A stretch of DNA of 39,576 nt from Chlamydiales bacterium (GTDB lineage Bacteria; Chlamydiota; Chlamydiia; Chlamydiales; JAAKFR01): positions 1 through 39,576 of the forward strand of contig JBAPRV010000018.1 in NCBI GenBank assembly GCA_049281295.1. Direction: 5' to 3'. A program made the translations under genes and the position numbers. The number at the start of each line of letters is the position of its first letter. Position 1 is the stretch's first letter. Under the pieces are notes generated by a model that searched no databases, had not been told where the DNA came from, and worked only from the letters and a program-made list of their open reading frames with translations. This document shows, one piece after another, positions 19,883-19,974 of the stretch.

Positions 19883-19910
19883 GAAAAAGAGAAAACGCCC
19901 TTAAAAGGGC
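19883..19910 (-). terminator. Terminator-like hairpin plus U-tract in the 5' leader of the tyrP operon (candidate attenuator)
   Basis: The minus-strand RNA reads GCCCU-UUUA-AGGGC (19910..19897) followed by GUUUUCUCUUUUUC. No upstream minus-strand gene exists for it to terminate. Confidence 0.35.
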
Positions 19911-19939
19911 CAAAAGAAAAAGAAAGGATTGCACTGCAT
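19901..19939 (-). CDS. Candidate leader peptide MQCNPFFFFWPF (12 codons)
   Basis: ATG CAG TGC AAT CCT TTC TTT TTC TTT TGG CCC TTT TAA, read directly from the minus strand. The TGG-CCC-TTT-TAA codons overlap the 5' arm and loop of the hairpin. No SD, but TTACAA-16-TAGATT ends 7 nt before the ATG, so the transcript could be leaderless. Confidence 0.3.
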   Translation of the reverse strand: MQCNPFFFFWPF

Positions 19940-19974
19940 GAAATTAAATCTAGCAAATCGTCTTATTTTTGTAA

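Follow-up and report, generated by a model that had tools for sequence, protein, structure and literature searches.

How might a chlamydial operon for aromatic amino acid uptake and tryptophan charging be matched to the supply of the amino acids that it serves? The question is raised by a stretch of 39,576 nucleotides from a Chlamydiales bacterium (GenBank: GCA_049281295.1, contig JBAPRV010000018.1), referred to here at its full length as the window, in which a 12-codon open reading frame (ORF) rich in Phe codons precedes a tyrP-tyrP-trpS-uvrB operon and ends inside a small hairpin. An earlier note on this DNA proposed that a ribosome stalled in this mini-ORF occludes the hairpin and allows read-through into the operon. 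Comparison with other chlamydial loci now indicates that the mini-ORF is a genuine conserved regulatory leader peptide and not a chance ORF. It most likely senses Trp and Phe supply through ribosome stalling. The features from which the argument starts are listed below.

19901..19939, minus strand: leader ORF of 12 codons plus stop, MQCNPFFFFWPF (sequence reading)
19913..19924, minus strand: four-Phe run TTC TTT TTC TTT, directly 5' of the Trp codon (sequence reading)
19910..19912, minus strand: the sole Trp codon, TGG, whose third base G opens the hairpin stem (sequence reading)
19897..19910, minus strand: hairpin GCCCU-UUUA-AGGGC (folding)
19848..19896, minus strand: U-rich, G-poor spacer starting with GUUUUCUCUUUUUC (25 T, 8 C and 3 G of 49)
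19947..19952, minus strand: -10-like hexamer TAGATT, 7 nt before the leader ATG (sequence reading)
19969..19974, minus strand: -35-like hexamer TTACAA (3/6 match to TTGACA)

The leader ORF begins with an ATG at 19939-19937, 92 nt upstream of the tyrP1 ATG (19847) on the same strand, and ends with a stop at 19903-19901. Its codons (ATG CAG TGC AAT CCT TTC TTT TTC TTT TGG CCC TTT TAA) comprise 5 Phe and 1 Trp in 12. The hairpin is built from the arms GCCCT (19910-19906) and AGGGC (19901-19897) around the loop TTTA, with the UAA stop running across the loop into the first base of the 3' arm, and is followed by GTTTTCTCTTTTTC (19896-19883). The Phe and Trp content of the mini-ORF, the formation of the hairpin from its last codons, and a promoter-like spacing of TTACAA, 16 nt, TAGATT, 7 nt and ATG had all been claimed in the earlier note, and each was verified here on the sequence, the ORF base by base. 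An alternative -35 element, GTTACA, matches at 4/6 positions with a 17-nt spacer, and no Shine-Dalgarno (SD) sequence precedes the leader ATG.

Folded alone, the window hairpin is modest (-8.3 kcal/mol, z = -2.4 against dinucleotide shuffles), and the 131-nt window leader as a whole folds no better than its shuffles (z = -0.19). The hairpin and its tail fit a terminator pattern, with a 5-bp stem containing four GC pairs and 5/8 U including a run of four. When the window intergenic region was searched with Rfam covariance models, the T-box included, none came near threshold at E <= 10. By itself, the window sequence places the leader barely above chance.

Conservation of the leader among chlamydial lineages

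The comparison sample comprised 80 chlamydial genome loci, 3 contigs of the nearest protein matches and 80 metagenome loci. In a search of 5.8 billion proteins, the nearest homologue of the window TyrP was 69% identical, and the top matches all came from Chlamydiales/Chlamydiota metagenome-assembled genomes (MAGs). Because the best permease homologue is this distant and the relative that encodes it has no leader, nucleotide alignment of the window leader was impossible, and loci were compared by features (ORF, codons, hairpin). The gene order tyrP-tyrP-trpS-uvrB is kept in ~60 non-redundant lineages; others have tyrP(-tyrP)-uvrB without trpS. The earlier note had called for comparing chlamydial tyrP/trpS upstream regions, and doing so yielded 26 other non-redundant loci, from environmental chlamydial lineages, in which the region upstream of tyrP1 has an ORF and a hairpin of the same geometry, 27 including the window. 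In the shared architecture, a short Phe/Tyr-rich ORF runs into a GC hairpin whose 5' edge holds its one or two Trp codons; the flanks show no nucleotide-level similarity across the 27 lineages.

The leaders are of single-Trp and tandem-Trp types. The window belongs to the single-Trp clade, in which the peptide ends in FW[C/P/R]x before the stop codon; its members include MNLMEFCMHFIPFFFWCV, MKAHAFFFPSFFYFWCF, ...NFFFSRFVYFWCI, MKTQSCFYSFSCFWCI, MRSHLFFFFSYCRFFWC, MEFNPRFSFWFTWRF, MNLFTSLFLPHSFWR and MIRYSHFSSFYLYFWC, each written up to the stop. Two W-P leaders, ...QFFSFFWPKG and ...FTSFFSFWP, resemble that of the window. Tandem-Trp leaders (FWW...) are found in more distant clades, including MAGs labelled Parachlamydiaceae and Waddliaceae, and their peptides, again written up to the stop, include ...FFFFFWWL, ...RPFFFWWQ, ...SHFFFWWR, ...FHFFFRFWWPTGH and ...FFSFFWWLTPSHS. 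Only the F/Y run and the W(W) are common to the peptides, and the residues that come after Trp vary with the sequence of the stem.

While the peptide varies, the geometry is kept. Measured from the 5' end of the stem, the Trp codon has an offset of -2 to 0 in nearly all instances, and the family's GC hairpins range from -4 to -14 kcal/mol. The stop codon falls inside the hairpin in 21 of the 27 members, 17 of which have it in the loop and 4 at another position, and lies a short way past the hairpin in the remaining 6. Covariation was read from a Trp-anchored pair table and stability from shuffle z-scores. UGG pairs with CCA or UCA in ~18 of 21 leaders, and the stem covaries at position +3 (C-G 14, U-A 5, U-G 1), position +4 (G-C 9, C-G 2, U-A 2) and position +5 (C-G 6, U-A 2, A-U 1, G-C 1). 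All 20 hairpins tested were more stable than dinucleotide shuffles, with z-scores from -1.2 to -5.9 and a median of about -3.4. A MAFFT alignment of the hairpin segments under one structure string was dropped, as the single- and tandem-Trp types stand in different registers.

To set these numbers against background, a detection rule (F/Y-rich short ORF plus an in-frame Trp at the 5' edge of a GC hairpin) was applied to 81 tyrP upstream regions and matched 16. Elsewhere, the same rule gave 23 matches, visibly poorer, in 1.68 Mb on both strands, or 0.006 per 450 nt; the enrichment upstream of tyrP is ~30-fold. In 17 of 21 leaders, neither of the other frames has as many F/Y codons as that of the ORF (totals of 102 versus 59 and 69 in the three frames), a result that is affected by ascertainment, since the detection rule partly biases it. 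With that reservation, the Phe/Tyr-richness of the ORF frame answers the objection that a T-rich tract yields Phe codons by chance. Presence of the leader also follows the gene content of the operon. After removal of duplicates, it precedes 22 of 61 operons with trpS, 1 of 60 without trpS and 4 of 20 truncated operons, and the association with trpS is significant (Fisher p = 7e-7), at a value inflated by shared ancestry. There were no Rfam gathering-level matches in 13 leader-bearing loci.

The RNA that surrounds the hairpin has an unusual composition. In the 50 nt after the hairpin, G averages 7% in the family and 16% in 239 control 5' regions (p = 7e-8); the corresponding values are 46% and 34% for T and +0.11 and +0.02 for the C-G difference. 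The position profile is flat, with U at ~50%, G at 3-10% and C at 16-30% from -30 to +40 around the hairpin, and a G-poor pyrimidine tract of ~100 nt is common to all 27 members. The corresponding window spacer (19848-19896) is a candidate terminator tail, pause zone or Rho-loading tract.

The start of the leader was examined in the 21 first-found instances, aligned on their ATG, with a -10-like hexamer defined by A2, T6 and at least 4/6 matches. Such hexamers peak 6-8 nt before the leader ATG, where they occur in 11 of 21 instances compared with ~0.8 at each of the other offsets, and they include TATAAT (twice), TATGAT, GATAAT, TACAAT and, in the window, TAGATT. An SD-like sequence precedes the leader ATG in only 4 of 21. 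This arrangement suggests a leaderless or near-leaderless leader transcript in about half of the family, the window included.

Two further observations concern the surroundings of the leader in relatives. In many of them (L002, L006-L009, L011, L013-L015, L017, L020, L081 and L082) a co-oriented pair of genes, dus (tRNA-dihydrouridine synthase) and an acylphosphatase gene, precedes the operon; the leader is then absent, with tyrP1 directly next, or is located between the acylphosphatase gene and tyrP1 (L016, L082). The upstream neighbor in the window is another gene, divergent from the operon (20232-20936). A second candidate leader in L006 and L007 (MSSDFFRFFLW..., opposite strand) was dropped, having a TTG start and no related downstream gene. 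It lies within sequence shared by these two near-identical relatives.

Proposed attenuation by hairpin occlusion and its rivals

From the ORF, its frame, the geometry of Trp codon and stop, the covarying hairpin, the G-poor tract and the association with trpS, all read directly from the sequences, we infer that ribosomes stall, that starvation means ON, where transcription starts and how it terminates. The reading that we favor, with moderate confidence, is ribosome-mediated attenuation of tyrP-tyrP-trpS-uvrB by hairpin occlusion, in which starvation turns the operon on. Transcription would probably start at the leader AUG or a few bases away, and the ribosome would cross the Phe run to arrive at the Trp codon, the 5' edge of the small GC hairpin. 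If Trp-tRNA or Phe-tRNA were scarce, it would stall at the end of the Phe run or at the Trp codon. A stalled ribosome with its A site there would cover the 5' arm and the loop and block the hairpin. Because a ribosome with UGG in the A site protects ~12-13 nt downstream, the hairpin could not exist during the stall; a footprint of this size would extend over the 5' arm and the loop into the 3' arm, and the hairpin would be blocked likewise from the last 2-3 Phe codons. The stalled ribosome would also shield the centre of the ~100-nt G-poor tract, and RNA polymerase would read on into the operon.

If charged tRNAs were ample, the ribosome would instead reach the stop one to three codons on and depart. 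The hairpin would then close, naked U-rich, G-poor RNA would be exposed, and transcription would end early. In the window, this premature end would most likely fall at the hairpin's own U-tract (GUUUUCUCUUUUUC), possibly with assistance from Rho. On the simplest reading, the hairpin is the regulated object, negative for expression, and starvation removes it. The leader would thereby report the supply of charged tRNA-Trp, and probably of tRNA-Phe too, to the permease and tryptophanyl-tRNA synthetase (TrpRS) operon. Turning on Trp/Tyr/Phe uptake and Trp charging under starvation would make a sensible homeostatic circuit.

Several observations weigh against attenuation of this kind. The leader is missing from 39 of the 61 trpS-type operons and from the nearest relative (L081), whose divergent intergenic region is just 63 nt; the element has therefore often been lost. 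In the window the stem is merely 5 bp (-6.7 to -8.3 kcal/mol), and the terminator pattern that it fits occurs at chance level, with 2 found versus 2.2 expected from shuffled sequence in 2 kb and ~1 per kb across the window. A canonical U-tract follows the hairpin in only ~10 of the 27 members, and U has no specific enrichment in the first 8 nt past the stem; the terminator claimed earlier is plausible in the window, which is among the ~10. Neither a 2:3 antiterminator, nor a second hairpin, nor a 3:4 terminator recurs in the 21 full leader folds, and folding of the window leader found no alternative pairing. In the window, the 49-nt spacer is too short to hold a second hairpin. The earlier note had already listed the want of an obvious antiterminator as a caveat, and it applies to the window and to the 21 full leaders alike. 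The window promoter pair is weak (7-8/12) and was not listed by a promoter scan. The leaderless start considered in the earlier note agrees with TAGATT 7 nt from the window ATG and with 11 of 21 family members, but the placement of the -10 box fits in only 2 of the 6 later-found instances that served as a replication set.

A further difficulty is one of timing. By itself, a one-hairpin intrinsic terminator fails to separate a stalled ribosome from one that follows closely, because a ribosome trailing RNA polymerase at short distance masks the hairpin as a stalled one does, and because the stop codon in the loop is unreachable until the polymerase has moved on. In classical attenuators, the choice between 2:3 and 3:4 pairing separates the stalled from the non-stalled ribosome. 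Since it has no antiterminator, the chlamydial leader lies outside that class. The earlier idea that stalling occludes the hairpin is therefore supported in part: the conserved geometry of ORF and hairpin, the covariation and the frame speak for it, whereas intrinsic termination, and the sufficiency of the device without an antiterminator, do not gain the same support.

The timing problem would disappear if the same leader, again ON under starvation, worked through Rho-dependent termination as in the tna operon, which we regard as a serious possibility though clearly the less probable one. The Phe run and the spacer would then form a ~100-nt rut-like G-poor tract, halved by the hairpin, and a stalled ribosome would block Rho. 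After release at the stop, Rho would terminate transcription in early tyrP, with the hairpin acting as a pausing or synchronising element like the trp 1:2 hairpin. This fits the base composition of all 27 members (G 3-10% and C 16-30% from -30 to +40), the lack of a sharp U-tail peak, with 17 of 27 having no canonical U-tract, and the lack of an antiterminator in the family folds. It also has precedents, in that tnaC governs a permease of the same family, Rho-dependent polarity has been reported at Trp codons in Chlamydia trachomatis (PMC7755916, PMC8670374) and terminator-less candidate leader peptides of Actinobacteria have been ascribed to a tna-like Rho mechanism (PMC1262725). Rho, however, offers no compelling reason for a covarying hairpin with a stop codon in its loop. 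The tract is mostly U, with no absolute enrichment of C, and a stalled ribosome would mask only ~30 nt of it; in the window, the 49 nt between hairpin and tyrP ATG are short for Rho loading, and the U-tract is a good one. A reversal of the logic is improbable by comparison. In such a pyrBI-like coupling sensor, the hairpin and the U-rich tract would make the polymerase pause or terminate by default, and only brisk translation of the Phe run would melt the hairpin in time, so that aromatic sufficiency would be ON and starvation OFF. The single hairpin and the extension of the ORF into it suit this scheme, and in some members the Phe codons start at least 10 codons before the stem, where a stall would leave the hairpin free. 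The permeases are, moreover, 'Up-Trp' proteins whose synthesis is expected to drop under Trp starvation (PMC3937554). Reversed logic would also fit the proposal that Trp availability is a chlamydial growth cue. The most conserved codon is nevertheless the Trp codon at the stem edge, and a ribosome awaiting Trp-tRNA there would already have opened the hairpin, leaving Trp unsensed; a homeostatic design that stops the import and charging of Trp during Trp scarcity would also be unusual.

Control could instead be exerted on translation, as in erm/cat, if the pyrimidine-rich Phe-codon tract or the tract past the hairpin paired with the purine-rich SD of tyrP and a stalled ribosome freed it. In several minimum free energy folds the tyrP SD does pair with the Phe run or the U-tract, and leaderless short ORF (sORF) attenuators (bioRxiv 10.1101/834739) and the LEU element (PMC1262725) provide precedents. 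The pairing itself is unremarkable: duplexes between leaders and their ribosome-binding sites (RBSs) average -8.7 kcal/mol versus -8.0 kcal/mol with the RBSs of other genes (Wilcoxon p = 0.55), the window duplex (-4.1 kcal/mol) is worse than most of its controls (mean -7.5 kcal/mol), and the whole window leader, as given above, is no more stable than shuffles. Sequestration of the SD by the Phe-codon tract was rejected, its pairing being no better than with control RBSs, and translational attenuation is accordingly a distant prospect. The least credible account is a non-regulatory one, with a chance ORF and a chance hairpin in a T-rich tract or a hydrophobic micropeptide with a function of its own. 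T-rich DNA readily gives Phe codons, the terminator-like pattern occurs at chance frequency and many relatives lack the element. Against this, 27 lineages retain the ATG and an open frame rich in Phe/Tyr, with the Trp at the stem edge and the stop in the hairpin, while the peptide sequence varies; leader peptides typically keep composition over sequence in this manner, and functional micropeptides typically do not. In every case the element lies next to tyrP1 on its 5' side, and its presence goes with trpS; its background frequency is only 0.006 per 450 nt. Ribosome-mediated attenuation by hairpin occlusion thus remains the reading that we prefer.

The operon and the adjoining DNA

The leader precedes four overlapping genes in the window.

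18636..19847, minus strand: tyrP1, aromatic amino-acid permease, 403 aa (ORF listing and family search)
17434..18639, minus strand: tyrP2, aromatic amino-acid permease paralogous to tyrP1, 401 aa (ATGA overlap with tyrP1)
16391..17437, minus strand: trpS, tryptophan--tRNA ligase, 348 aa (ATGA overlap with tyrP2)
14398..16401, minus strand: uvrB, 667 aa, final gene of the conserved cluster (11-nt overlap with trpS)

The ATGA overlaps lie at 18639-18636 (tyrP1/tyrP2) and 17437-17434 (tyrP2/trpS). Pfam and NCBIfam assigned both permeases to Trp_Tyr_perm and confirmed UvrB, and TrpRS matched TIGR00233 at 300 bits (cutoff 177). The SD of tyrP1, AGGA (19860-19857), lies in the spacer, and the start of tyrP1 cannot lie upstream of 19847 because an in-frame TAA stands two codons before the ATG. 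The neighboring gene (20232-20936, plus strand), which has no family match, is divergent from the operon. These results agree throughout with the earlier description of two ATGA overlaps and one of 11 nt, two aromatic permeases with TrpRS, and a divergent gene upstream. Both permeases (17434-19847) are rich in Trp (2.0% versus 1.1% across all long window ORFs) and in Phe (7-8% versus 5%), with tyrP1 at 2.0% Trp and 7.2% Phe; translation of the permeases should therefore itself be sensitive to the amino acids apparently sensed by the leader.

Upstream of the promoter-like pair, the window carries an imperfect palindrome of 160 bp (19975-20134) with 24-nt terminal arms that are 96% complementary. 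It is flanked by direct TTACAA repeats at 19969-19974 and 20135-20140, in the context GCTGC-TTACAA-ACTCACC...GGAGAG-TTACAA-AAATAAG, and the -35-like TTACAA doubles as the promoter-proximal copy of this 6-bp repeat. The palindrome resembles an insertion of MITE type, flanked by a target-site duplication of 6 bp, and would have left the promoter spacing intact. It accounts for the strong fold of the whole intergenic region (z = -7). The insertion is present as a single copy in the window, and no copy or relative of it was found in any fetched locus. A 163-nt hairpin spanning 19973-20135 was considered as a structured 5' untranslated region (UTR) and rejected, the insertion being upstream of the -10/-35 pair. 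Some 1.2 kb from the palindrome, a 487-aa ORF (21338-22801, plus strand) matches HTH_21 (E = 3e-23), with further weak matches of helix-turn-helix and transposase-type N-terminal kinds, and may be transposase-related.

Palindromes occur near the leader in relatives as well. In L035, a different long palindrome (4739-4871) with perfect 34-nt inverted arms lies between the leader hairpin and tyrP1; it is unrelated in sequence to that of the window and displaces the leader to 280 nt from the gene. Intergenic regions near tyrP1 thus seem to be targeted by palindromic insertions. In L028, a Parachlamydiaceae MAG, a perfect 26-bp palindrome (GATGCATTTATTATGATAAATGCATC, 4780-4805) stands 19 nt upstream of the leader ATG (4824) and may be a repressor operator acting on the leader promoter.

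Two other patterns were recorded in the window. Terminator-like sites, consisting of a hairpin plus a T-tract, number 42 in its first half (1-20000), twofold the 20.2 +/- 4.9 found in shuffles, and several of them fall within 7300-10500 on both strands; the second half has 15 versus 18.4 in shuffles. Short direct repeats of 15-25 nt, 72-80% identical, link 19855-19869 and 19871-19895 with 20206-20230 and are probably chance matches between AT-rich ribosome-binding regions.

Relation to known leaders and to tryptophan supply

How does this leader compare with established ones? In the E. coli trpL leader, the 1:2 hairpin has the Trp codons in its 5' arm and the stop codon in its loop. The chlamydial leader shares this placement, with Trp codons in the 5' arm and the stop in or at the loop, and it likewise precedes a Trp-related operon that would be ruled by ribosome position, with tandem Trp codons in most chlamydial clades. 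Unlike trpL, it has no segments 3 and 4 and no match to the Rfam Trp_leader family, it is probably leaderless, it places a Phe run before the Trp (a single Trp in the window), and it precedes permeases and TrpRS instead of biosynthesis genes. The Phe-run leader peptides of E. coli, pheL (pheA) and pheM (pheST), offer a second parallel, drawn by comparing PheL with MQCNPFFFFWPF. Unlike the chlamydial leader, they have complete attenuators made of alternative hairpins and an ORF preceded by an SD, and their stems contain no Trp codon.

The E. coli tnaC leader (tnaAB) senses free Trp through its nascent peptide, is induced at high Trp and requires W12, D16 and P24. Likeness to the chlamydial leader lies in a critical Trp, in a ribosome held near the end of the ORF that masks RNA from Rho, and in a permease of the same family (TnaB) downstream. 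The chlamydial Trp codon is similarly close to the stop, which falls within the Trp-codon hairpin in 21 of 27 members, and a G-poor tract with C exceeding G adjoins it. The residues W12, D16 and P24 at their fixed spacing were not found in the chlamydial leader peptides, and tnaC has no hairpin, unlike the chlamydial leader.

Leader-peptide attenuation of an aminoacyl-tRNA synthetase operon is established for pheST (PMC3082878, PMC1262725), and attenuators have been described for Streptomyces trpS and leuS, those of trpS being classical elements with an antiterminator (Seliverstov et al. 2005, PMC1262725). Streptomyces also has trpS behind a Trp-codon leader, in a different phylum and with unrelated sequences. 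In actinobacterial ilvB leader ORFs, runs of regulatory codons directly overlap the terminator hairpin, attenuator components such as the antiterminator are missing and the mode of regulation was stated to be unclear (PMC1262725). The overlap of ORF and hairpin is shared; in addition, the chlamydial element has its stop codon placed in the loop and a G-poor tract. The leaderless polycysteine sORFs of mycobacteria have been shown experimentally to be Cys-responsive attenuators that act on translation, their Cys tract pairing with a downstream SD (Canestrari et al., bioRxiv 10.1101/834739). Here too, the first ORF is rich in codons specifying the amino acid served downstream and a classical terminator/antiterminator pair is lacking, whereas pairing of the tract with the SD is unsupported in the chlamydial leader, and amino acid and phylum differ.

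Within the chlamydiae, trpL-type leaders have been proposed for the trp operons of Chlamydiaceae, C. trachomatis trpL included (PMC3937554, PMC7755916), and the WWW motif of YtgCR is likewise linked to Trp-codon-dependent control of Trp-related genes (PMC3937554, PMC7755916). A trpL proposed between trpR and trpB of C. felis ends in ...FPFFFSLWWAFAQ (Bonner et al. 2014, PMC3937554). Compared as a peptide only, it bears the Phe-run-then-WW signature of the tandem-Trp leaders; no hairpin architecture has been reported for it. The Chlamydiaceae trpL leaders stand between trpR and trpB and serve salvage or biosynthesis, unlike the leader described here, which lies upstream of tyrP/trpS. Tandem tyrP paralogs near uvrB have been mentioned, with no leader described for them (Bonner et al. 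2014, PMC3937554). We found no published account of a tyrP/trpS leader in the literature, Cenci et al. 2016 included. The remark in the earlier note that no such attenuation was known in Chlamydiae accordingly holds for tyrP/trpS, but not for the Chlamydiaceae trp operons and their proposed trpL-type leaders.

Taken together, these comparisons suggest that the leader is a variant of leader-peptide attenuation outside the existing Rfam leader families. The principle is a textbook one; the minimal architecture is unusual and apparently undescribed before genes for Trp uptake and charging. We tentatively raise a broader possibility, of which we are doubtful: that the element represents an attenuator class of its own, minimal and amino-acid-sensing, which goes back to the ancestor of much of Chlamydiota. 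Such a class would be leaderless and free of an antiterminator, with the Trp codon or codons forming the 5' arm of its only hairpin and the stop in the loop, would rely on ribosome occupancy of a hairpin-split G-poor tract instead of alternative folds and would be related to the Phe-run-WW peptide of C. felis. Were this true, the class would be a starvation-induced mirror image of tnaC, with termination by Rho or by a weak intrinsic signal, and a direct Trp-tRNA sensor for chlamydial Trp import and charging. With one hairpin and probably no 5' UTR, it would be a compact natural attenuator that could inform how attenuation works under loose transcription-translation coupling. Annotators can recognize the motif by an F/Y run that leads to W or WW at the edge of the stem, with the stop codon following in the loop.

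Trp supply is the central battleground between chlamydiae and their hosts, with indoleamine 2,3-dioxygenase (IDO)-mediated starvation and persistence. To our knowledge, little is known of chlamydial Trp sensing beyond TrpR, YtgR and the debated C. trachomatis trpL. The leader described here spans Parachlamydiaceae-like, Waddliaceae-like and unclassified lineages. If it acts as proposed, stalling-based sensing of charged tRNA-Trp and tRNA-Phe would be old and widespread in the phylum, and it would rule the uptake and charging of these amino acids rather than their synthesis.

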